From positions 20,542-84,541 of the forward strand of contig JBAYHK010000004.1 of the NCBI GenBank assembly GCA_041666145.1: a DNA stretch of 64,000 bases, in the 5' to 3' direction. Numbering within the stretch: the first letter of the stretch is position 1; every line of letters begins with the position of its first letter. The position numbers and the translations under genes were made by a program. The notes under the pieces were generated by a model. It saw only the letters and a program-made list of their open reading frames with translations, had not been told where the DNA came from and made no database searches. The DNA comes from Patescibacteria group bacterium. GTDB taxonomy: Bacteria; Patescibacteriota; Patescibacteriia; UBA9934. This document shows positions 1 through 40,647 of this stretch, piece by piece.

Positions 1-3000
1 ACTCCATCTCCACATACAGACGGATCTGAATAACTCACTGATGAACCGATAAACGTACAAGAATCTGAACAACCCTCATCCCCATCACAATCTTCACCAA
101 TGCCGCTATCAGAAATAAGATCGACGCTATTGTTTCCGCAACAATCAACGTCAGAAGACGACGAACAGGCCGACAGTCCTTCGCGAATACATATCGACGA
201 ACATCCGTCATCATTTTCAATGTTCCCATCGTCACAAGTTTCATACGGCGTTGTAATAACGCCATCACCACAAAGCGCATTTCCAAGCGCGGCTAAACTT
301 TGAGATCCTTCACGCAAACACTGTCGAGAACATCCGTCACCGCTTGCATTATTTCCGTCATCACACTCTTCGCCAGCACGAGTAGTTGTGTTATATGCAA
401 CATCATTATTTCCACACGTAGCCTCAACTGCTGCAGATCCCTCCGCGAGACACATTGACGAACAGCCATCACCATCGACAAGGTTCCCATCATCACAGTC
501 TTCAGCAATGTCACTACTATAATTCACTTCGATGTCTCTGTTTCCGCAACAATTCGACCCAGAAGTTCCACATGATGATTCTGCGTACAAACAATCACTA
601 TTTGTTACACAAGCGCTACCGCTCAACGTACAAAGCGACGTCGACGTATCACAAGTCTCTATACACTCAGAGTCTGCAGTGCAAGAAGCTCCTGAAGAGC
701 TACAAACAAACGAACAGGCAGTACTGCCTTCATACAGACACATCGAAGAACACCCATCGTGATCTGTAGTATTTCCGTCATCGCATTCCTCTCCACCACC
801 ATTTGAATCTTGATCCAAAACACCATCACCACATACAGCCTGATACGCAGAACTTCCACCAGGAGTACAGCTCGCTGAACATCCTTCTGTAATACCAGTA
901 ATACTGCCATCAAGAAGCTCTCCTGACTGTGTATACCAAGCCGCAGTCGATGCAGTAGTTTCAGTATTTTGTGCATCATCAAGAATTGGATCTTCCCAAC
1001 TCCAGGCATAATCGCTACCAACAAGTCGCTGTCCAGAAGTCGAACAAGCGTCCGCTGCACCAAATGCATCAACGCTAAAGGCCGCAGTCTCGCCTATTGC
1101 TGTTGCAGTAGCAATAGATGGCGCGAGATCAATACGCTCAACAGAACAAAGCGTTCCGTCCTCACGGACTCGGAATGTCCAAGAATATCCCGTTCCATAA
1201 TTCGTTCTTGTTAAAGCCACGCCACTAACACTTCGAACCGATCCAGAAACGATAACTCGATAATACGTTCCTACTGTCAAAACTTGAGATTCAAACGTGA
1301 ATCCATTACATAACGTCCCCGCTGCATCACTATAAGAACATGACGGATTCGAGCTAACTTGCGTTAATGTTGTACACAATTCATTCGCACAAGAATACAA
1401 AAGAATATTTCCACCAGAAATAATGTCACCCTCTGTCATCGTGGTATTGAATAAAGCACCCACCTGAGCATTCGAACATGACTCAGTACAATCTGGCCAA
1501 AAATCCGAAATATATGGATCGGTAAAGTTTACTGTTAATTGCGAATCATCAGAAATCGCCCCTCCGCTCTCACTGTTTATTGCGGTTGCCGTAACTGTAG
1601 TAACGCCTTCTGCAAAAGCCTCAAATGTTGCACACGCTGTTGGATCTCCTGCGCACTCATTGTCTATAGAAGAATTGAAATCAACATAAGAATAAGAATC
1701 AATCGACCAATCCCACGCATAATCGTCATTATCTACAACAACGCATCCCGTTCCTGCATTTGCTCCAAATCCAGTTGTCGCGCCATCCTCACTCAAAGTT
1801 TCGCTTACAGGAGTCACAGTTACACGGTCAACAACACAATCTTCATCAGTTGCCGCAGTTGTAAAAGTCCAAGTCTCGTCGCTAGCCAAAGGAGTGGAGT
1901 CGATCGATTGCGCTACAGTCGAAACCGTAACCTGATATGTTGTATTTACATCAAAATTCTCAGTCGGAACCCACATGAAACGCGTAGCAGATTCTGATGA
2001 AGACACTGTTGCAATTCCCGAGACCGCCTCCGTAGTTGCACACGAATTATCCGTCGAGCTACTCACCGTCGCAGTGCACTTCGCCACCGTAACAGCATCC
2101 GCAACCGACGCTTCGTTCATGAGCGCCGTAAATTCTGCGTATACTGCCGCATTCACGCAGATCTCTCCTGATTCGGAGAATTCATTGCTTGGCACTGCAG
2201 AGACAATATCTGAAGAACATTCAGAAACAATCTGCGGCACCTCAGCAATCTCTCCAGTTGAAAAGCTCCAAGCATATGACGCGTAGACTCCTGCAGTCGT
2301 TACTGCAGATTCCGCAGAACCAACAGAAAAGTTTACAGCATTACTTGAAACACCATCCACGATTATCGATAAAGGACCGGTCGTAGCACCGACTGGAACA
2401 GGAACATCAATTGCGTCATTCGTCCAACGCGTCGAAGATGCTGTCGTAACACCACTATAGAAAGAAACGAGGTCGATATCACTTCCGAAGTTATCGCCAG
2501 CAATCGTGATACTTTCACCAACATTCCCAGATGCAGTAATCGCACAAATACCAGGAGTTGGACTATCTGTAGAAATAGTGAAATCTATTGAAGTCGATTC
2601 AGTTCCCTGACTGTTCGTCACCGAAACTGTATAAGCACCAGGAGCTATGTCTTGTCCGCTGTCATACGATTTCGGAACAATAACCGTGACTTGATCGTCA
2701 TTCCAAAAATCCGACAAACAAGCTTCAGGAAAATCAATACTCGCAGTAGCAGTGGTTCCATCACCGCCTCGGAATGTCACAGTTCCAACGCTACTTCGAA
2801 AATTCGTTCCGGAAATCGTTACGTACTGTCCAACCCCTCCAGAGCTTGGACTAATATCCGTAATTGTAGAGACATCGGTCTCTGGAACGTCGACAGTAAA
2901 GGAAATGGTATTCGAAGTGTTCCCGCCAACAACCACCGCAACGTCATAATCACCGGCATCTGCATTAGGAATAGTCACTTTCACTGTTCCATCAGCCCAT

Positions 3001-4721
3001 GACGTATACGAACCAGCTTCTACAGAAGAAAAATTCACCACCGATTCCCCTTGAGACTCTCCAAAATTAGATCCAGAAAGCGTGAGAGCTGACTCTGACT
3101 GACCAGAAGATCTTGAAAGTGTGCACAAATTCGGCATCACAACATCGTTCACGTCGAAATTTGAAACTAGTGCACCGTTGTCATCATCCGTGGCATCAGA
3201 AACATCATTTCCGGATGTAATTAAAATTGGACCATCGCCTGCACCTTCCGGTACCTCAACAACAATCTGCGTGTCACTCCATCCATCCGCACAATCATTC
3301 AACACAGTCGCCTCTACCGTTCCAGTCCCTGCCGCATCATAAAACATTACCGTTCCTGTATTTGCTCCAAAATCTGTTCCGGAAATTGTTACAAATGTTC
3401 CAACCGCACCAGAAATTGGAGCGACGTCAGTAATTGTTGGATTTGATGTACAAACAGACTCTTCACAAGATCCGCTTGAACATTCAGTAGCCTCTGTACA
3501 GCTCGAACCGTCACACGCACCACAATACGTGCTCAGTGAAGAGTCGCCTCCACAGTCAGTCCCAGTTTCACCAAGATCAGCGTCAGTAACTCCATTAAAA
3601 CACCACTCAGGTTGCGCGCGAACAGAAACTGTATCTGTATCTTCATTACCAGCAAGATCAAAAACAGTTGCGGAAATACTATATCGCTCACCATCCACAA
3701 AAGACTCGGTACTCAATGTGGTGCCAATCGTTGTCTCTGCTAAATGTCCAAGTGCCGGAACGCTGTCTTGCCAAACATCTTCAATAGAAAAGTCCGCAGA
3801 AACGACTACAACATTATCAATTGCACTTACCTGAACATCCATACTCGATGCCGACGCGACTCCAGCTCCACTCTCAGGAATAGTGATACTGGCCGAAGGG
3901 TCTTCAGTGTCAACATTTACTCCAGAAGTAAATGTCGCAGAGCACGGAGCGTCAAAACTACACGTCAAAATAACACCGTCTGAACTCTTTATGTTTTCCG
4001 TTGCAGCAATCGTGAATGTTGCATCTTTATCAAAACAGAATCGATCCGCATTCGGTTCAGGACATGCCGTACTCGGAGTAAAACGAATCACGTTATCTAA
4101 CACTGCATAATCTCCTGCAACCGCAGTACCAGATGCATCAACAATACTTAAATTTCCATCAACCGTCGTTTCATCTATTGCCTTACTAAATGTTACTCGA
4201 GGAACGATATTTCGAATTGACGTTTCTCCATCTGGAGAAAAGCTTGTTATTTCGAAAAGCGACGACGCACTGCCACCAAGACCAGATCCCGAACCAGAGC
4301 CTCCGCCAGCTCCAGAACCGCCAGATCCGCCTCCAGAAGCACCTGTTAATGCAGAAAGAACAAACGTCGCAATGCTCCATGACAACAAAATAATTACAAG
4401 TCCTATAGCCGCATTAATTAAAACCTGTTTTGCTTTATCAACTTTTTCCGGATTACCTTCAGCTGTCATCCAAAGAAAACCACCATATACAACAAAACAA
4501 ACTAGAACTATGCCAATGAATCCGAGTGCATAACGAATAATATTTCCAACAATGATCTTTGGATCTTCAGACCCGAGACCGGTGGTCTCTCCAACTGTCG
4601 TTAAATTCTCAGTAACCGCATCTGCAGCAAAGGCTACCTTTGGAAAACTACCAAAGGCTCCGAAAATCAATAAAAGTCCTAGTCCTATTCCTGCGAAAAA
4701 ATGGCGAAAAGAAATCTTCAC
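1..4721 (-). CDS. Giant cell-surface protein, partial (3' end/C-terminus lies beyond window start). It has an N-terminal signal peptide plus TrbC/VirB2-like two-helix membrane module, a Gly/Ser linker, four or more IPT/TIG-like repeats, and C-terminal CxxDDGN...DGCSxxC Cys-rich repeats (DUF4215 / Myxococcus-type)
   Basis: The minus frame with codon phase set by GTG at 4721 is open across all 4721 nt. No long ORF is listed in the track because the stop is outside the window. Hand translation gives VKISFRHFFAGIGLGLLLIFGAFGSFPKVAFAADA...GFLWMTAEGNPEKVDKAKQVLINAAIGLVIILLSW...GGSGGSGAGGGSGSGSG, then IPT-like ISGTDFGANTGTVMFYD repeats, then GDGVxxxxEECDDGNxxxGDGCSxxC repeats. The N-terminus aligns with the downstream paralog 4732..6561. 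Confidence 0.75.
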   Translation of the reverse strand, partial: MKISFRHFFAGIGLGLLLIFGAFGSFPKVAFAADAVTENLTTVGETTGLGSEDPKIIVGNIIRYALGFIGIVLVCFVVYGGFLWMTAEGNPEKVDKAKQVLINAAIGLVIILLSWSIATFVLSALTGASGGGSGGSGAGGGSGSGSGLGGSASSLFEITSFSPDGETSIRNIVPRVTFSKAIDETTVDGNLSIVDASGTAVAGDYAVLDNVIRFTPSTACPEPNADRFCFDKDATFTIAATENIKSSDGVILTCSFDAPCSATFTSGVNVDTEDPSASITIPESGAGVASASSMDVQVSAIDNVVVVSADFSIEDVWQDSVPALGHLAETTIGTTLSTESFVDGERYSISATVFDLAGNEDTDTVSVRAQPEWCFNGVTDADLGETGTDCGGDSSLSTYCGACDGSSCTEATECSSGSCEESVCTSNPTITDVAPISGAVGTFVTISGTDFGANTGTVMFYDAAGTGTVEATVLNDCADGWSDTQIVVEVPEGAGDGPILITSGNDVSDATDDDNGALVSNFDVNDVVMPNLCTLSRSSGQSESALTLSGSNFGESQGESVVNFSSVEAGSYTSWADGTVKVTIPNADAGDYDVAVVVGGNTSNTISFTVDVPETDVSTITDISPSSGGVGQYVTISGTNFRSSVGTVTFRGGDGTTATASIDFPEACLSDFWNDDQVTVIVPKSYDSGQDIAPGAYTVSVTNSQGTESTSIDFTISTDSPTPGICAITASGNVGESITIAGDNFGSDIDLVSFYSGVTTASSTRWTNDAIDVPVPVGATTGPLSIIVDGVSSNAVNFSVGSAESAVTTAGVYASYAWSFSTGEIAEVPQIVSECSSDIVSAVPSNEFSESGEICVNAAVYAEFTALMNEASVADAVTVAKCTATVSSSTDNSCATTEAVSGIATVSSSESATRFMWVPTENFDVNTTYQVTVSTVAQSIDSTPLASDETWTFTTAATDEDCVVDRVTVTPVSETLSEDGATTGFGANAGTGCVVVDNDDYAWDWSIDSYSYVDFNSSIDNECAGDPTACATFEAFAEGVTTVTATAINSESGGAISDDSQLTVNFTDPYISDFWPDCTESCSNAQVGALFNTTMTEGDIISGGNILLYSCANELCTTLTQVSSNPSCSYSDAAGTLCNGFTFESQVLTVGTYYRVIVSGSVRSVSGVALTRTNYGTGYSWTFRVREDGTLCSVERIDLAPSIATATAIGETAAFSVDAFGAADACSTSGQRLVGSDYAWSWEDPILDDAQNTETTASTAAWYTQSGELLDGSITGITEGCSASCTPGGSSAYQAVCGDGVLDQDSNGGGEECDDGNTTDHDGCSSMCLYEGSTACSFVCSSSGASCTADSECIETCDTSTSLCTLSGSACVTNSDCLYAESSCGTSGSNCCGNRDIEVNYSSDIAEDCDDGNLVDGDGCSSMCLAEGSAAVEATCGNNDVAYNTTTRAGEECDDGNNASGDGCSRQCLREGSQSLAALGNALCGDGVITTPYETCDDGNIENDDGCSSICIREGLSACSSSSDVDCCGNNSVDLISDSGIGEDCDGDEGCSDSCTFIGSSVSYSDPSVCGDG

Positions 4722-4731
4722 AAATGAATGT

Positions 4732-6543
4732 TTAGAAGAGCGTACATGCCGTCGACTGAGGAGTGCCATTACAACAATATGGAGAACTTGCAGTTGTCCC
4801 ACAACTACCACCGTTACTATCTGGGCCTTCCCCTGGAACAAAACAATTCTGATACTCGTTAAGAACTCCTTCGTTCGCCGCAACGCCATACATGAATGAC
4901 AAAGGAGGAACCGCCACTGAATCAGACGCAAGGAATGTTCCATGCTCAATCGTCACCATTGTTTTTACTGGAATTTGTGAATCAGTTAATACTTCTTCAT
5001 TTGCATCAGTCAACCAAACTGTTCTAAAGGCATACCAAAGTTCATGATCGTCGTTAGAATTGACCTCTTTATTTGAAAGCTCGATATTCGAAGAGTTCAC
5101 GCTCGATGTGTCTAATATTGAATCAAATGTAATCTGAATGGATTGGTCTAACGCAATATTTTCACTCAAAATTTCCGGAGCAATGCTTTCAATCGCTGGA
5201 GCGTCAAGATTTATATTATTTGTAGTAGTAAAACTCCAAATGTAATCATCGCCTGCACTGACGACACCATCACCATTTCCATCCATAGAGTTTCCTGACG
5301 TATCAACAATTCCATCGTAAGGATATATCGAAGCCGTCGGGTCTGTTGACGACGTTGGAGTAGCGGAAGCAATAGACGCTGTCACTAATTGACCACCAGG
5401 AAGGCAGTAAATCGTCTCACCACATGAGTTCGTTCCACAAGCGTCAGTAGTTGTGAATGTAACAGTTCGATATCCATTTCCAATTGTATATTCGCCTGCG
5501 GTTGGTGCAGACACCGACGCACCAACAACCTGAATATTCGAAAAACCACTTTCAGCTTCACGAATTCCAGAGGCGGAAGTTGGATCGACTGCCTCGCTAA
5601 ATGTCATCTGAACAGTAATGTTCCTATCTTTTGTCGAATTTGCCGATGGGGCAATGTTTTCAACTGTAGGTGGAGTAATATCGACTGTTGTTCCGGTTGT
5701 GAAGTACCAAAGGTATCCTCCGTCATCGATCATGGTCGCTCCTGTTGCGTCTTGAATTGAATCGCTCAAAAAGACTGCATACGTCACATCAGCAGTCGCA
5801 GAGCCAAGATATTCAGCTGGATCAAAAGAAAATGTTTTTAAATCATCAGTAAACGACACCGCCACATTCGTCAACGCGGAAGAATCACCAGTATCACGAA
5901 CATAAATTTTTACGTTTTCTGTATTTATTGCCGTTGCGACAGTATCGTCAGATACGTCTTCTGGAGTTCCGTTTGTATTGTATCCGTCAATAAACGATGA
6001 AATGTCCATTGCATCTCTAAACGTCACAAAAATCCGTGTATTTCGAGAAACGTCGGTGGCATTACGTGCTGGATAATGGTCTCTAATTGCGCCAGAGCCA
6101 AGCGAATTTGAAAGCCTTTCAACAGAAATACTACCCGAGCCATCTCCACTTCCGCTCCCCCCTGTTGCACCTCCGAGCGTATTCAAAATAAACGTCGCAA
6201 TCGCATAAGCAGAAAGTGTTATCACCAAACCAACAACTGCATTAATTAAGATCGCCTTTGCTTTCTCAACCCTCTTGCCATCTCCTCCTGCCGTCATCCA
6301 AATTGCACCAGCGTAAACAAAAAGGATCAAACAAATCACGCCAAGCAAACTCAATGCAACATTAATAACACGACCGATAATTGTCAGTAAATCTGTGTCT
6401 GCAAAACCGCCACCAGTTCCAACGGTGGCAAGATTTGCATCAGCGGCAAACGCGAAAAATGGAACAGCGATCAAGAACCCAATTGCAACAAAGAAAGAAC
6501 CGCGTTTGAACGCTCGAAAAAAAGAAGGGTTGAACACATGCAT
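4732..6543 (-). CDS. Surface protein paralog (~600 aa) with signal peptide plus TrbC/VirB2-like membrane module, GSGSGDGSGS linker and Big_5/SbsA-like Ig domains. Track ORF extends to 6561; start at MHVFNPSFF (6543) preferred by alignment to the paralog
   Basis: ORF 4732..6561. Two hydrophobic helices INVALSLLGVICLILFVYAGAIWM / LINAVVGLVITLSAYAIATFIL are separated by GGDGKRVEKAKA, matching VirB2/TrbC topology. ITPPTVENIAP...MTFSEAVD is Ig-like. Confidence 0.8.
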   Translation of the reverse strand: MHVFNPSFFRAFKRGSFFVAIGFLIAVPFFAFAADANLATVGTGGGFADTDLLTIIGRVINVALSLLGVICLILFVYAGAIWMTAGGDGKRVEKAKAILINAVVGLVITLSAYAIATFILNTLGGATGGSGSGDGSGSISVERLSNSLGSGAIRDHYPARNATDVSRNTRIFVTFRDAMDISSFIDGYNTNGTPEDVSDDTVATAINTENVKIYVRDTGDSSALTNVAVSFTDDLKTFSFDPAEYLGSATADVTYAVFLSDSIQDATGATMIDDGGYLWYFTTGTTVDITPPTVENIAPSANSTKDRNITVQMTFSEAVDPTSASGIREAESGFSNIQVVGASVSAPTAGEYTIGNGYRTVTFTTTDACGTNSCGETIYCLPGGQLVTASIASATPTSSTDPTASIYPYDGIVDTSGNSMDGNGDGVVSAGDDYIWSFTTTNNINLDAPAIESIAPEILSENIALDQSIQITFDSILDTSSVNSSNIELSNKEVNSNDDHELWYAFRTVWLTDANEEVLTDSQIPVKTMVTIEHGTFLASDSVAVPPLSFMYGVAANEGVLNEYQNCFVPGEGPDSNGGSCGTTASSPYCCNGTPQSTACTLF

Positions 6544-6577
6544 GGCAGAAGTATACCGCAAATGTGTTCAACCCTTT

Positions 6578-8217: not shown

Positions 8218-8469
8218 TTATCGACGGGTTGGCTTTCGCAAATCCTCTTCTTTAACCTTTCCTGTTTTCAATAAGTATTCGCGACGTTCACCCATGGTCA
8301 AGCTTCGCAGCTTGCTCTTATGAGTCTTATTCTTCTTTGCTGTTTTTGCAAAATATCGTCCAGCACGGACGTCGAGCGCTTTTCCACTCTGTTGCAAACG
8401 ACGGCTAAAGCGACGAAAAACCGCTTCAAAGCTCTCACCTTTTTTTCTTTTTACTTCAATATCAGACAT
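8218..8469 (-). CDS. rpsU: 30S ribosomal protein S21
   Basis: 83 aa, basic, ...ESFEAVFRRFSRRLQQSGKALDVRAGRYFAKTAKKNKTHK. Confidence 0.85.
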   Translation of the reverse strand: MSDIEVKRKKGESFEAVFRRFSRRLQQSGKALDVRAGRYFAKTAKKNKTHKSKLRSLTMGERREYLLKTGKVKEEDLRKPTRR

Positions 8470-8628
8470 ATTTTTGTTCCTCCCTTCAGGAATGTGAGGA
8501 TGATATCAGATCATAAAAAACCAAGCAAGATGGCCCTAAATAGAAAAGCCCCCGGACACCATCTTGCGATGGATCCGAGGACTCATGTGCCATGCAGCCG
8601 TTGCTGCATGGGCCGTGCCGAACTGGAC

Positions 8629-10665
8629 TCAGTAGAGATCGATGACCGCGTGCCCGTCGTATCCCCATCCCCAGTCGAAGGGCAGAGGGGAAATGGAAAC
8701 GCCTTCGAGGGTGACATCTTCACAATGATCGACGTCCTGGTAGAGCCACGTACCGTCACCAAAGTCGTGCTCCTCTCCGTAGGTCCCATCCGCGTCGTTG
8801 TCGAAGGGGCCGTTCAGAGCGACCGTGTGGCCGTGCACGAACAGGAAGTCGGTACAGAGCATGCCGAAGCCCTGCGCATAGCCCGGGAAGTCCCAGTCTG
8901 GGTCGAGGCTGCCGTCAGGAATGACGGTCCAGTCACGAATCCAGAGCTGCCAGGATACGCTCATGAGACCAGTCACCGGAGTAACGCAGATCTCCAAGGT
9001 ATCGGAGACATTCGCCAAGCCGTCGCAGTTGTCGTCCACGCCGTTCATGGACACTTCTTCGGCGTCAGGGTTGATCTCGGCATCCAGGTCGTTGCAGTCG
9101 CCGTCTTCCACGGTGAAGCCGTCGCTATCGGCGTCGGCGTCGTCGCAGGTCAGATCTTCGTCGACGCTGTCATCGCAGTCATCGTCCATGTCGTTGCAGA
9201 CTTCGTCGGCGGCGGGGTTGATGCCGGAATTTCCGTCGTCGCAGTCGGTGCTGTCGGAGACGTAGCCCTCGGGCGCGGAACAGGCAATCGCCGGAGTCCC
9301 GGAGCCGTAACCGTCATCGTCCATGTCGAGATAGAAGGAGGACATGAGCCCTTCATCCACCGCGCCGTCACAGTCGTCGTCGATACCATTGCAGGCTTCG
9401 GGGGCGCCGTTGTAGATGGCGGAGTCGGTGGGCTGGCAGTCCGTGATGTCCGGATCGCCGTCACCGTCGGTGTCGACCTCGGGCTCGGGTTCGCAGACAT
9501 CTCCTTCGTCGACGGCGGTGTCGCAGTCGTTGTCGATGGTGTCGCAGATCTCGGTGGCGCCGGGGTTGATGGCGGAGAGGAGGTCGTTGCAGTCGGTGTC
9601 GTCGGCGATGAAGCCGGTGGGAGCACCGTCACAGGTAGATTCCGAATTGGTGCTGTCGCCGTAGCCATCGCTGTCGCTGTCCGCGTACCAGGTGGCAAAG
9701 GGCAAGCCCTCGTCGATCTCGCTGTCGCAGTTGTCATTCACGCCGTTGCAGACTTCGGAGGCGCCGGGGTAGATGGCGATGTTGGAGTCGTTGCAGTCGG
9801 TGCTGTCGGAGACGTAGCCTTCGGGCGCAGAGCAGGCGGCAACGGAAACATCGATGTCCCCATAACCGTCCGTATCCGTGTCCCTGTAGAAGGCGTAGAG
9901 CTCAACTCCACTGTCCGCGGCGTCGACGAGCAGGTCACAGTCGTTGTCGATGGTGTCGCAGATCTCGGTGGCGCCGGGGTTGATGGCGGAGAGGAGGTCG
10001 TTGCAGTCGGTGCTGTCGGAGACGTAGCCTTCGGGCGCGGAGCAGGCGAGCATCATCATATCGGGGTCGCCGTAGCCGTCATCGTCATCGTCCACGAAGA
10101 AAGTGCTCGTGACGTCCTCATCGACGTCGCCATCGCAGTTGTCGTCGAGGCCGTTGCATTCTTCGGTGGCATCGGGATTGGTCTCGATGTCATCGTCGTC
10201 GCAGTCGCCGTCGATGGTGGCGTAGCCTTCGGTTCCGCAGGCCATGAAGCTTTCGCCGGTGCCGTAGGAATCGCCGTCGCTGTCGGTGTAGACAGGAACG
10301 TCGGCGTCCGTGACGTCAGCACTTTCATCGTTGCAGTCGCCGAAGTTGGTGCCCTCGGTCGAAGTGACTTCAATCCATTCTTCTTCCGGAGTGCCCGCGT
10401 AGATGCAGAAGCAGCCGGTGTGGAACGGATCCGAGACGCTCGCGTTGACGTAGGTGTCGCCGTCGGCGTCGGGGCAGTAGGCCTTGAGGGGGTCGGCGGA
10501 ACCGCTCACCACAAGGGCGAGACAGTCTTCAACGGTGGCGCCAGCCGGGAGATCTTTTCCCGTGGCATTGGTGCCAGGGATGTCGTAGATGTCATCGGTC
10601 TTGGTGGAACAGCCCATGAGGGCGAGGAGAAGGAGCGTAGCTCCGGAGATACTGGTGGATTTCAT
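8629..10665 (-). CDS. Secreted lipoprotein (678 aa) with about 8 tandem DxDCND..INPGAxExCDxxDNDCDxxxDE putative metal-binding (MopE-like, PF11617-type) repeats; markedly GC-rich
   Basis: MKSTSISGATLLLLALMGCS lipobox; repeated ...DCNDLLSAINPGATEICDTIDNDCD...; the gene is visibly GC-rich relative to flanking genes (GC not computed). Confidence 0.85.
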   Translation of the reverse strand: MKSTSISGATLLLLALMGCSTKTDDIYDIPGTNATGKDLPAGATVEDCLALVVSGSADPLKAYCPDADGDTYVNASVSDPFHTGCFCIYAGTPEEEWIEVTSTEGTNFGDCNDESADVTDADVPVYTDSDGDSYGTGESFMACGTEGYATIDGDCDDDDIETNPDATEECNGLDDNCDGDVDEDVTSTFFVDDDDDGYGDPDMMMLACSAPEGYVSDSTDCNDLLSAINPGATEICDTIDNDCDLLVDAADSGVELYAFYRDTDTDGYGDIDVSVAACSAPEGYVSDSTDCNDSNIAIYPGASEVCNGVNDNCDSEIDEGLPFATWYADSDSDGYGDSTNSESTCDGAPTGFIADDTDCNDLLSAINPGATEICDTIDNDCDTAVDEGDVCEPEPEVDTDGDGDPDITDCQPTDSAIYNGAPEACNGIDDDCDGAVDEGLMSSFYLDMDDDGYGSGTPAIACSAPEGYVSDSTDCDDGNSGINPAADEVCNDMDDDCDDSVDEDLTCDDADADSDGFTVEDGDCNDLDAEINPDAEEVSMNGVDDNCDGLANVSDTLEICVTPVTGLMSVSWQLWIRDWTVIPDGSLDPDWDFPGYAQGFGMLCTDFLFVHGHTVALNGPFDNDADGTYGEEHDFGDGTWLYQDVDHCEDVTLEGVSISPLPFDWGWGYDGHAVIDLY

Positions 10666-10900
10666 GAAGAACCTCTGTCGAAAAGTGCACCACGCTAGTG
10701 GCGTCTCTGTTGTTGACGAATGCAGCCCGCTACTTTAGCGAGGCCGCATGTGTAGTCCAGTTCAGTTGGGAAAGATCCCAGCCGTTCCAGGCTTCAATTC
10801 ACGAAAATGTTAAACATTCGCGCAAGTTGAAGCCTGAAACAGGAGGGGTTAGGCTATCAGATTTAGGAAGTTCTGTCAAGAAGAAACCGAATTTTAGAAA

Positions 10901-10934
10901 AAACAAAAACGGCCAATGTTAGCCGTTTTTGTTG
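10901..10934. terminator. Bidirectional rho-independent terminator (hisS 3' end)
   Basis: AAAAACGGCCAATGTTAGCCGTTTTTGTT: 6-bp GC stem flanked by A-tract and T-tract. Confidence 0.6.
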
Positions 10935-10943
10935 ATAAGCTTT

Positions 10944-12312: not shown

Positions 12313-12954
12313 TTACTCTGAATACGTTGGAACATCAAATGTCGACACTCGATCAAACGGCAACCCACGAACCCAGACTCGTCCAATAAACTCATCCATA
12401 GTAACGGCGCCAAAGTATCTCGAGTCCAAACTCGCGTCTCGATTGTCTCCTAGAACATAGAATTCATCAGCTCCAAGCGTTCGACGATCCCGTCCTTCTG
12501 TGACTTCCCCGATATAATATTCTGTAAGCACAAATCCATTCGGAGACTCTAAATTGTAGATTGTAATCATCCCGTTACGAATCTCTACAGTCTCTCCTGG
12601 AAGGCCAATAACACGCTTAATATAATATTGATCTTCATGCTGCGGAGGTCGAAATACCACGATTTCCCCACGCTCCGGATTTCTGAATCGGAAAGTCAAC
12701 TCGTCAATAATGAGATATTCATTGTCATAAAAGTTCGGCTCCATCGACGCTCCCTTTACAACAAACGGCTGAATAAGAAAATATCGCACCGGAAGAATAA
12801 TCGCCAAAGCAAGCACTGCAATCTGCACAATCTCTGCAATAAACAAGGCGAATGCTCCTAATGAAGGCCCGAACCATCGTAAGAATGGATGAGCTTCAGG
12901 AGTCTCTTCTTTACGAGAAAAAATCATAGTCACGCGCCACAATAGCATAGTCAC
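12313..12954 (-). CDS. lepB: Signal peptidase I
   Basis: GASMEPNF (catalytic Ser), KRVIGLPGE, GDNRDASLDSR. Confidence 0.85.
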   Translation of the reverse strand: MTMLLWRVTMIFSRKEETPEAHPFLRWFGPSLGAFALFIAEIVQIAVLALAIILPVRYFLIQPFVVKGASMEPNFYDNEYLIIDELTFRFRNPERGEIVVFRPPQHEDQYYIKRVIGLPGETVEIRNGMITIYNLESPNGFVLTEYYIGEVTEGRDRRTLGADEFYVLGDNRDASLDSRYFGAVTMDEFIGRVWVRGLPFDRVSTFDVPTYSE

Positions 12955-23800: not shown

Positions 23801-23857
23801 CGCCAAAAATGCTATCATTTCCCGTCCGCTGTGTTCCTCAAACCCCAGGAGTTCTCA

Positions 23858-24418
23858 ATGGAATCAACCGTGATCGATGCCCTACGGTCCCTTCTTTGCC
23901 GGCGCCTCGGTATCCCAGTTCCCTACTCCAAACTCTTCGGAGAATCAGAGTTGGGAAACTGCCGCGGAGAAGTAGTGGAAGGAGACGCGCTTGCTCCCCC
24001 GACGAATGTTCCAGACTGGTCCAGATGGCTCAATCTTCTTCACTGGGCATGGCTTGCCATGTTTATGTGGAAGAAGTACGCCATCTTCCAGGTGTGTGAC
24101 GGCTCTGACCCATACCGCGTCATGTTCCGTACGGATGTTCACCACAATCATCGCGATCCCCACGCCTGGACGGTCATGCCGCAAAGGATCCGTACAAGAT
24201 TCGTGGCAATGAAAATCGGTCATGAGCCAGTCGAATTCGCAATGATCGATCAGCGCGGAACCCTCATCTTCGCGTGGCTCAAGGAATGTATCTTTGGAAA
24301 ACGTGCGGTTCTTGACATGATTCGGCGCTATATCACCATAGAGCTCACGAGAGCTGAGAGCATTGGCGACCTCGGCAGGGTCATCGTCAAACCCAGCCGC
24401 TACCTCACGATCCTCTAG
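23858..24418 (+). CDS. Hypothetical protein (GC-rich, plus strand; track ORF starts 23831)
   Basis: 195-aa ORF, no recognizable domain; followed by GC hairpin 24431..24455 acting as plus-strand terminator. Confidence 0.45.
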   Translation: MESTVIDALRSLLCRRLGIPVPYSKLFGESELGNCRGEVVEGDALAPPTNVPDWSRWLNLLHWAWLAMFMWKKYAIFQVCDGSDPYRVMFRTDVHHNHRDPHAWTVMPQRIRTRFVAMKIGHEPVEFAMIDQRGTLIFAWLKECIFGKRAVLDMIRRYITIELTRAESIGDLGRVIVKPSRYLTIL

Positions 24419-39514: not shown

Positions 39515-39976
39515 TCAATCAATGCGTTCAAGGTAGAACTCCTCTTCCCCACCACTAGAAACCCGAGGCATCTTTTGCATGCCTTCCTTAGCTTTTTCTT
39601 TAATTTCAACGACTTCCGGTGCGGTCCATAACGACTTCAATGCCTCTTCATCAACATCAGCCTCATCCAGCACAGATTCCTCAATCTCGTCCCCGCTAGC
39701 AATTGGTGCGTCCTCAATCTGAATATCTTCAATCTCATCTTCCTTGCTCTCCGACATCCAAGACTCTAAGGCGGCAACTTCCATCTGCTCTTCTGTGGCA
39801 CCCTCCGATGAAACCTGGAGCTCCCCCATCTCAAGCGCCCCGTCAATCAGCAACTCATATTCATTCAATGGCAAAATCACCAGTGGCTCTTCTTTTCCCT
39901 CTTCATCCGTAACAATAATCCTATCCCCCGTTTTCCGAGCTAGCCGCAACAACCGAGAAAAATGATTATTCGCCAT
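39515..39976 (-). CDS. Hypothetical highly acidic protein (153 aa) inserted between tuf and fusA
   Basis: Glu/Asp-rich (EDEIEDIQIEDAP...EESVLDEADVDEE), no known domain. Confidence 0.55.
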   Translation of the reverse strand: MANNHFSRLLRLARKTGDRIIVTDEEGKEEPLVILPLNEYELLIDGALEMGELQVSSEGATEEQMEVAALESWMSESKEDEIEDIQIEDAPIASGDEIEESVLDEADVDEEALKSLWTAPEVVEIKEKAKEGMQKMPRVSSGGEEEFYLERID

Positions 39977-40128: not shown

Positions 40129-40647
40129 ATGCTCACGCTCGCCCTTTTCCTCCTTCCTCTCATCCACTCCGCCAACGCCGACGCCTACGTCGTGGGATTC
40201 AAGGCCAATATCGCCGAGAACAACGTCATGCTACTAGCCGCACCCGAGGACCTCTGGTTCTCAGGAAATGGCGGCGGCGCGGTCACGTTCGAGTCACATA
40301 GAACCAGGTTCATGGACTCTAATTCCAGACTCGCACTTTCTGCCGGATGGAACCACCACGGTGGGTTCACCTTCGAAGGGAACTGGCGCATACGCGACCA
40401 GTTCTCGAGCTCAACCACCTTAGTCGCCGATCTCGTCGGATTCAGCATTGGCAGTGGAATACTGTCGCCGAACGACGAAAAACAACTAATGTTCATGACT
40501 GGCGGAGGCATCGAAATTCCTGTCATAAAAGGCGTCGATGTCCAGCTGATCGGCAAAGTCGGCATGGGAACAGCACGCGATGACAACCACGACTGGTTCA
40601 TCACCAACACGACATCTATCTACCTCGGCGCGTCACACGACTTCTGA
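40129..40647 (+). CDS. Secreted hypothetical protein (172 aa) with signal peptide and C-terminal aromatic residue; GC-rich; plus-strand island inside the str operon
   Basis: MLTLALFLLPLIHSANA signal peptide; alternating hydrophobic beta-like pattern; ends ...YLGASHDF; flanked by its own GC hairpin terminator. Confidence 0.6.
   Translation: MLTLALFLLPLIHSANADAYVVGFKANIAENNVMLLAAPEDLWFSGNGGGAVTFESHRTRFMDSNSRLALSAGWNHHGGFTFEGNWRIRDQFSSSTTLVADLVGFSIGSGILSPNDEKQLMFMTGGGIEIPVIKGVDVQLIGKVGMGTARDDNHDWFITNTTSIYLGASHDF

Follow-up and report, generated by a model that had tools for sequence, protein, structure and literature searches.

Cysteine- and aspartate-rich repeats of the Pfam family PF11617 (Cu-binding_MopE) are found in secreted proteins of the Myxococcota, in cargo proteins of the type IX secretion system (T9SS) of the Bacteroidota, and in others. 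Of MopE/CorA the family spans just a short portion, and it lacks specificity (PMC6189053); the cysteine-rich core of the teneurins has been aligned to its consensus (PMC3278476). In this study, we analysed a 64-kb stretch of DNA (the window) from a metagenome-assembled genome (MAG) of Candidatus Uhrbacteria, which belong to the Patescibacteria or candidate phyla radiation (CPR), and in it a gene for a predicted lipoprotein with repeats of this kind. The gene (8629..10665, minus strand) lies between hisS and rpsU; coordinates are those of the window, from which the set of neighbours and the statistics on open reading frames (ORFs) were also drawn. We put at roughly 0.6 the probability that it encodes a lineage-specific, recombining surface lipoprotein within an old and maintained GC-rich island in the hisS-rpsU gap.

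The repeat itself is shared with the MopE-related PF11617 proteins, as all of them are secreted and contain the same unit of about 65-70 amino acids (aa), 50-68% identical per unit, with a DxDxDGYG loop, the motifs ACSxPxGYV and DCxDxxxxINPGAxExCxxxDxDCDG, and four conserved cysteines. Unlike those proteins, however, the one studied here is predicted to be lipid-anchored, has neither a T9SS tail nor lectin, RCC1 or FG-GAP domains, is short (seven units), and possesses N- and C-terminal domains found only in Uhrbacteria. Its codon usage also departs strongly from that of the host genome, whereas the Bacteroidota members match theirs.

The gene is evidently real and, from its sequence, its product is predicted to be exported and lipid-anchored. 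The ORF of 678 codons, with its stop codon at 8629-8631, starts at an ATG at 10665 that is preceded by 6 nt by the ribosome-binding site (RBS) AGAGG (10672..10676, minus strand), and an identical protein is encoded in NCBI assembly GCA_041660465.1, contig JBAZWH010000001.1 (246 kb). The N-terminus (M-K-S...LLLLALMG-C19) carries the lipobox L-M-G-C19 after K2 and a hydrophobic stretch and thus has the features by which bacterial lipoproteins are recognized, i.e., a basic n-region, a hydrophobic h-region, and a cysteine within the first 15-35 residues. The N-termini of all family members are alike, with LSAC, LTAC, IAAC, LAAC, and LVGC as examples. In the annotation of the JGI (Joint Genome Institute), the protein of the window (P0001, 662 aa) begins at M17, which removes the signal peptide and leaves the start without an RBS (region 10618-10665). 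We favour the ATG at 10665 over M17 because an RBS is present there and the lipoprotein signal is restored.

A Pfam search finds PF11617 in seven tandem stretches with 183 bits against a cut-off of 27 (E 8.7e-55), while a regular expression recovers six canonical cores in addition to one degenerate (aa 409-432) and one truncated copy (near aa 109-120). The first-pass annotation of this DNA, made by eye, had proposed a lipobox lipoprotein with about eight MopE-like motifs, and both the lipobox and the count are fair descriptions. A strict DxDxDGYG loop precedes four of the cores (aa 192, 262, 329, and 447), and looser Asp/Gly-rich loops lie upstream of others, such as DSDGDSYG (aa 128) and DTDGDGD (aa 398). 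In an alignment of 28 sequences covering two units, C24/C37/C52/C59 and C94/C107/C122/C129 are invariant, as are Asp and Pro columns; the final unit of the protein is one cysteine short. The repeat stalk is very acidic (20% Asp), and aa 398-439 weakly resemble a dockerin-type Ca2+ loop (5LXV, E 0.03). For the C-terminal domain we obtained a confident all-beta model (predicted local distance difference test, pLDDT, 90.6; predicted TM-score, pTM, 0.85), and fold searches with this beta-sandwich returned no close solved relative.

In composition, the gene stands well apart from its surroundings, as the first-pass annotation had judged without computing it. Its GC content is 61.6%, while the remainder of the window has 47.1%; the three codon positions are at 0.60/0.44/0.80, and the third-position value (GC3) of 0.80 compares with 0.33-0.50 in the neighbouring genes. 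Third positions contain C, G, A, and T at 0.66, 0.15, 0.06, and 0.14, respectively; the C3 of 0.66 contrasts with 0.19 +/- 0.08 in 55 other window ORFs (z of about 6; z of about 4.9 for GC3). Sliding-window analysis revealed a sharp GC step that is completed within about 100-200 bp at both ends of the gene. The codons that are rarest in the genome are mostly the ones favoured, namely CCC (59% vs 4%), GCC (66% vs 10%), TCC (51% vs 6%), and CTC (69% vs 13%), with Glu codons still showing more GAA than GAG. GC3 is similarly high in the N-terminal domain, the repeats, and the C-terminal domain.

Three simple causes of this composition were considered and set aside. Conversion among the intragenic repeats as the sole cause is ruled out by the equal GC3 of the non-repeat N- and C-terminal domains. 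Translational selection of the kind seen in highly expressed genes does not apply, given that the genes for EF-Tu and ribosomal proteins in the window have ordinary GC3 and that the present gene uses the rarest codons. Nor is high GC3 intrinsic to MopE repeats: in Bacteroidota homologues that are 47-52% identical, GC3 is host-like at 0.20-0.25, the genomes having 36-37% GC.

The gene is not private to this genome. A scan of a genome collection with HisS gave 80 loci, from MAGs labelled Uhrbacteria or 'Patescibacteria group' and third-party annotation (TPA) MAGs of the same synteny, and the closest hisS loci come from Candidatus Uhrbacteria MAGs. All relatives with HisS at least 81% identical and a contig that reaches the site (loci L002-L007, L010, L026, and L027) carry one to three lipobox proteins there, with 3-8 PF11617 stretches; thus, within this set, absence from the same site in close relatives, the mark of a recent island, was not found. 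Altogether, family genes occupy the gap in 10 genome loci (the above and L088) and four Logan contigs (L084, L086, L087, and L089). Searched exhaustively with HMMER, 1.84 billion representative proteins contained only 19 matches to the C-terminal 134 residues, two of which are weak matches to unrelated repeat proteins, and 5/5 of those whose contigs were examined (P0124, P0127, P0128, P0132, and P0135) adjoin hisS and/or rpsU. Within a set of 138 retrieved proteins, matches to the N-terminal domain came from Uhrbacteria family members alone (36-39% identity). The family is therefore, as far as these comparisons reach, specific to Uhrbacteria and confined to the hisS-rpsU gap. It also includes short, head-only members of 150-240 aa that consist of an N-terminal hydrophobic anchor and the C-terminal domain alone (e.g., L007:16008-16520, L089:147-611, P0125, P0128-P0130, P0134, and P0137). 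They are GC3-rich and lie directly upstream of rpsU, in L007 beside two MopE genes; they may represent MopE lipoproteins reduced to a minimum, or else partners with which these recombine.

The upstream intergenic region, with the hisS terminator, a promoter-like pair, and a leader, is homologous across the clade, and the region upstream of rpsU is conserved as well. The same locus and a homologous upstream region in the relatives indicate that the island was inherited. In addition, synonymous sites of the flanking genes are near saturation between these species, so the acquisition evidently predates them.

These observations bear directly on the earlier suggestion, based on composition and phylogenetic flavour, of horizontal acquisition, for which a high-GC lineage such as the Myxococcota would be the source and the GC excess an unameliorated scar. 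The strong compositional contrast with its sharp boundaries would suit a recent gain, as would the top-scoring database matches, which are MopE-related proteins of Myxococcota, Bacteroidota, and others, and a codon usage that fits Myxococcus as well as it fits high-GC Uhrbacteria. However, the outside matches span the repeats only (53-77% of the query at 35-52% identity), and, once top-hit selection is allowed for, outsiders are no nearer to individual repeat units than the family is. For the full architecture, the best homologues are confined to the same lineage, which counts against the transfer claim, as do the presence of the family at this locus, with homologous promoter and leader, in every close relative examined, the family-confined N- and C-terminal domains, and the saturated flanks. 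Around the gene, the window shows no integrase, transposase, or flanking direct repeat, and the closest tRNA lies at a distance of 2.5 kb. We consider a recent gain highly improbable; of the original proposal, the MopE-type repeats stand, and a horizontal gain by this genome lacks support.

An error of assembly or binning, by which foreign GC-rich reads were joined into a CPR contig, would likewise produce a sharp GC step at both ends, and the source is indeed a MAG. But syntenic CPR genes lie on both sides on a 246-kb contig, different projects have yielded >12 independent assemblies with this arrangement, and the intergenic flanks are homologous, which leaves such an artefact a negligible prospect.

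The high GC3 has persisted across species. The 16 family genes have GC3 of 0.74-0.98 (at least 0.87 in 11/16), while the flanks have 0.45-0.60. Between these species, hisS and hflX differ at 0.35-0.76 of fourfold sites (Jukes-Cantor distances of 0.5 to >2), and a two-state sketch of neutral decay that starts from GC3 1.0 predicts at most 0.61-0.77. The turnover between L007 and L026, compared in two orthologous MopE genes, is of a particular kind: C<->G accounts for 58/88 fourfold differences as against 6/70 in hisS (Fisher p 3e-14), and differences between strong (S; G or C) and weak (W; A or T) bases number 29 where about 74 are predicted from hisS rates. Third positions thus seem to change and yet stay G or C, as in a stationary regime. 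In this subclade, C and G are about equally frequent at fourfold sites, Leu excepted, which argues against translational selection for one codon per amino acid and favours a generic preference for G or C. Taken at face value, these patterns mean that the GC-rich composition is shared, old, and actively maintained, and not the scar of a fresh transfer. The maintaining force would be gene-specific, either a recombination-associated GC bias or selection on GC; alternatively, alleles may be drawn repeatedly from a GC-rich pool.

A single ancient acquisition by the ancestor of the clade from a high-GC donor, followed by slow neutral amelioration with no maintaining force, would also make the locus older than the species. 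It would further agree with the GC3 of the window gene (0.80) and of L004 (0.74), which are near the expected decay values, and with the decay-like shift to GAA over GAG and T3 of 0.14 in the window gene. We nevertheless regard it as improbable, since 11/16 genes remain at 0.87 or above (to 0.98) although each lineage has accumulated 0.45-0.75 or more substitutions per synonymous site, and since the fourfold changes between the sister species are mostly C<->G, with S->W changes 2.6-fold below the hisS-rate expectation. As for the donor, a codon-usage likelihood fits genes of Myxococcus and of high-GC Uhrbacteria equally and does not distinguish the two; the preference for CTC far above CTG leans to Uhrbacteria.

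Within the gene, tracts of near-identical DNA point to recombination among its repeats. The tract encoding aa 219-244 equals that for aa 357-382 with one mismatch in 78 nt, and the tract for aa 207-223 equals that for aa 277-293 with one in 51, confirming the segments reported from the first inspection. They go far beyond chance because the remaining unit pairs are just about 60-75% identical in DNA. As aa 207-244 match two different units, the mosaic speaks for segmental gene conversion or unequal exchange and not for one clean tandem duplication. We therefore take the near-identical segments as signs of recent recombination among the repeats. The recent expansion or contraction that had been proposed holds insofar as the recombination is recent and orthologues vary from 3 to 8 Pfam stretches; simple tandem expansion does not agree with the mosaic tracts. 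The recently converted tracts reach a GC3 of 0.95, compared with 0.79 for the other parts of the repeats (p 2e-4, although the copies are not independent), which is weakly in line with a conversion bias.

The family as a whole appears to evolve very fast and through recombination. The protein of the window is 35-43% identical to proteins of species whose HisS is 93% identical, and between the genes L007b and L026b (HisS 99%) the N-terminal domains are 93% and the C-terminal domains 36% identical. Its C-terminal domain is nearest that of L004 (55%), although L004 is the most distant relative by HisS. Some genomes carry tandem paralogues, and every additional copy in L006, L007, and L026 is a complete gene. 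Together, the mosaics, the variable repeat number, the paralogues, and the domain discordance suggest frequent recombination at the locus. In a stronger form of this idea, the gap would be a recombination-driven, hypervariable surface-protein locus at which frequent conversion and exchange diversify the protein, by changing the length of the stalk and swapping head domains, and GC-biased gene conversion (gBGC) drives GC3 to 0.9-0.98 in genomes of about 50% GC. We hold this to be tentative and, on present evidence, doubtful. We found no relevant literature on biased gene conversion, GC3, and surface proteins in bacteria.

The gap also accepts other genes. The order signal peptidase I-hisS-[gap]-rpsU-yqeY is kept in 71 loci, with a gap of 300 bp or less in 52/71 and of >1 kb (1.2-6.4 kb) in 13/71; in the window, the gap flanks the gene at 8470-8628 and 10666-10943. 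Unrelated cargo (loci L008, L009, L015, L016, L017, L059, and L078) includes an AbiEii toxin, Bro-N with small toxin-antitoxin-like ORFs, GNAT/ASCH, a pilus/secretion-like operon, and uncharacterized GC-rich ORFs of GC3 0.72-0.88. Such varied cargo in the large gaps, and MopE lipoproteins in the window's own clade, mark the gap as an insertion hotspot. In L086, a 548-aa ORF with GC3 of 0.81 (L086:1031-2677, plus strand) lies between hisS and the MopE gene and has sub-threshold NCBIfam matches to a TIGR-Tas system RNA-guided endonuclease (E 8.5e-19) and an IS110-family RNA-guided transposase (E 1.3e-9).

It is conceivable that alleles or cassettes from a GC-rich pool, such as high-GC Uhrbacteria or mobile elements, enter this hotspot again and again through recombination in the conserved flanks, much as at O-antigen or capsule loci, and that this renewal keeps the island rich in GC. 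The unrelated cargo in other Uhrbacteria, domain relationships that are discordant with HisS, the IS110-like/TIGR-Tas-like ORF of the L086 island, and a CTC preference closer to Uhrbacteria than to Myxococcus are all in keeping with such replacement; furthermore, Uhrbacteria of high GC (60-66%) exist, one of which, L010, has a MopE lipoprotein at hisS-rpsU. On the other hand, the N-domain types largely track species groups, no donor was found with matching native composition and the same N- and C-terminal domains, and the synonymous turnover between the sister species, whatever the explanation, calls for a stationary GC-rich regime somewhere. Recurrent replacement as the main explanation therefore seems unlikely to us, though less so than ancient gain and decay.

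In the reading that we prefer, that of a recombining lipoprotein in a maintained island, the product would be a secreted, lipid-anchored cell-surface protein of Candidatus Uhrbacteria. Its stalk may serve as a spacer of adjustable length that presents a variable beta-sandwich head, and the architecture suggests an adhesin or receptor-binding protein for variable contact with a host cell or substrate. Diversification would proceed by copying of tracts between repeats, by changes in repeat number (3-8), and by reshuffling of N- and C-terminal domains among close species, with island-wide GC-rich, C-ending codons held by a gene-specific force.

Several observations weigh against this reading. The acidic stalk of seven four-Cys MopE repeats is presumed to be held by disulfides and Ca2+ from motif resemblance only, and an AlphaFold2 model built for two repeat units reached a pLDDT of just 45, too low for use. 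A metagenome scan for repeat-number polymorphism found no strain variants. Part of the C<->G excess stems from mosaic segments older than the species split, and repeated import from a GC-rich pool is a live alternative, the island of L086 containing a GC-rich IS110-like ORF. Finally, the window gene and L004, the least extreme family members, are near the values of plain decay from about 1.0; the force that maintains GC may be weaker in both lineages, and perhaps weak or lost in that of the window gene.

The remaining features of the island are collected in Table 1. The -35 element and -10 element of the predicted promoter recur in 12 related loci, where CTTGAC is invariant and TAnnnT conserved at fixed spacing, the pair lying about 190 nt before the ATG. 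The leader hairpin has 12 pairs with compensatory double changes (RNAalifold, seven species), and its cells are paired to 96.4%, a value matched by 0/500 shuffles and compared with 37-49% in slid controls. A covariance model scored 89 bits on the sense and 31 on the antisense strand; together with the many G-U pairs, this favours an RNA on the coding strand. Copies of the hairpin lie before the second MopE gene of L006 (13039-13127, plus strand) and between dprA and topA in a distant Uhrbacterium (L053:1685-1782, minus strand), and no Rfam family matches the leader. It may be a reusable palindromic element (a 5' stabiliser, terminator, or protein-binding site) rather than a gene-specific riboswitch. 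The large ORF antisense to the gene, which had been called spurious, is indeed best seen as a codon-antiparallel by-product: its frame is open because the gene never uses the codons TTA, CTA, and TCA.

Table 1. Features of the gene and of the hisS-rpsU island, in window coordinates.
Feature	Position	Strand	Basis or remark
Lipoprotein coding sequence with MopE repeats	8629..10665	-	ORF, Pfam PF11617, exact NCBI protein
Predicted signal peptide, aa 1-18, and lipobox C19 (MKSTSISGATLLLLALMG before the cysteine)	10609..10665	-	Sequence reading
Family-specific N-terminal domain, aa 20-112	10330..10608	-	Alignment; matches confined to Uhrbacteria family members
Repeat region, aa 113-552, seven MopE-type Cys/Asp-rich cores	9010..10329	-	Pfam and motif positions
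Family-specific C-terminal beta-sandwich domain, aa 553-678	8632..9009	-	
Segment A copy 1, aa 357-382	9520..9597	-	1 mismatch/78 nt vs 9934-10011
Composite segment, aa 207-244	9934..10047	-	3' part is a copy of segment A, 5' part a copy of segment B
Segment B, aa 277-293	9787..9837	-	1 mismatch/51 vs 9997-10047
Segment B third copy, aa 461-475	9241..9285	-	2 mismatches/45 vs DNA of aa 207-221; 2-3/45 overall
Spurious 792-aa antisense ORF	8320..10698	+	Exact codon-antiparallel frame, low-complexity V/A/G/D product, overlaps rpsU
Conserved 24-bp leader hairpin	10782..10842	-	Begins about at the predicted transcription start (near 10844)
Predicted sigma-70-type promoter	10851..10879	-	-35 TTGACA 10874-10879, 17-nt spacer, -10 TAGCCT 10851-10856
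Strong intrinsic terminator hairpin of hisS, upstream boundary of the island	10902..10933	-	14-bp stem and T run; compensatory changes across relatives

The neighbours of the gene are all on the minus strand: signal peptidase I, hisS, the gene itself, rpsU (S21), yqeY, and hflX. The signal peptidase gene (12313-12954) encodes the type I enzyme, not the lipoprotein peptidase. Beyond hflX (window 1-6561, minus strand; L001:14123-22037) are genes for a 609-aa T4SS-pilin/Big_5 protein and a 3131-aa surface protein with T4SS_pilin, four TIG, Big_5, DUF4215 ('Myxococcus cysteine-rich repeat'), and VWA domains. These two surface proteins have ordinary, genome-like GC and serve as an internal control, as they suggest that "myxobacterial-flavoured" repeats need not be compositionally foreign. 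The window is strand-asymmetric, with nearly all genes on the minus strand and a cumulative GC skew that falls monotonically; minus-strand genes have G3 > C3 and plus-strand genes C3 > G3, and the lipoprotein gene, on the minus strand, is skewed opposite to its neighbours. Two plus-strand ORFs, 40129-40647 (172 aa, GC3 0.70) and 23831-24418 (195 aa, GC3 0.64), lie between minus-strand genes, have no Pfam match, and may be small genes or chance ORFs. A Phd/YefM antitoxin-like ORF (39515-39976, minus strand) with a sub-threshold match of 26 bits is located between the EF-Tu and EF-G genes. Among the loci compared, many TPA MAG records (L002, L003, L005, L010, L012, and others) are named 'uncultured Gammaproteobacteria bacterium' although they show Uhrbacteria-type synteny and HisS 73-94% identical; these organism names look wrong.

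CPR bacteria are thought to live attached to host cells, and few of their surface proteins are understood. The locus offers a lineage-specific, rapidly diversifying, putatively lipid-anchored candidate for contact with a host or substrate. As a MopE-repeat protein, it is ordinary in kind, and its Uhrbacteria-specific form is new; what is worth attention is that a gene-specific GC3 regime persists and that a surface protein of a CPR bacterium varies by modules. We found no literature on MopE in Patescibacteria or on cysteine-rich proteins of Uhrbacteria. GC3 of up to 0.98 inside genomes of GC3 of about 0.5 provides a tractable natural test of GC-biased gene conversion versus selection on GC in bacteria. 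Should the locus prove hypervariable in the stronger sense given above, it would stand out among bacteria as an exceptionally clear natural example of gBGC, or of selection on GC, that is specific to a gene. It would also be the first locus resembling those of variable surface antigens to be described from Patescibacteria, and one whose 5' leader is structured. It also calls for caution, as atypical composition and 'foreign-looking' repeats alone do not show recent horizontal transfer.

Among characterized proteins, the nearest comparison is MopE* of Methylococcus capsulatus (2VOV/2VOW/2VOX), to residues 3-45 of which aa 508-552 align with an E of 1.2e-6. In both proteins, a single motif without the third cysteine stands directly before a beta-rich domain. 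This alignment with the N-terminus of MopE*, together with the Pfam name 'Cu-binding_MopE', could be taken to mean that the repeats bind copper for scavenging or buffering at the surface, as in MopE/CorA-like acquisition. However, only the brief Cys-rich motif with which MopE* begins is matched; no similarity is detectable in the main copper-binding domain, fold searches with the C-terminal domain did not retrieve 2VOV, the window has no copper-related neighbours, and the setting is neither methanotrophic nor related to copper. In MopE*, moreover, copper is bound in the main domain, by two histidines and kynurenine, and not in the Cys-rich motif, which further counts against this function. Copper acquisition is thus quite improbable. 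Thrombospondin type 3 repeats and the Cys-rich region of teneurins also share Asp-rich DxDxDG-type loops and close cysteines with the stalk, a resemblance at the level of motifs only.

At the level of the locus, comparison with Borrelia vlsE and its cassettes and with O-antigen or capsule loci is instructive. Unlike vlsE, the window has no silent cassette array, and the head-only ORFs of the relatives are complete genes. The coding strand here is C-rich, not G-rich, and evidence of switching within a population was not found. By analogy, however, the hisS-rpsU island would share with these systems a predicted surface lipoprotein between conserved housekeeping flanks, and likewise a persistently aberrant composition, strand-asymmetric G and C, segmental conversion, and modular exchange.

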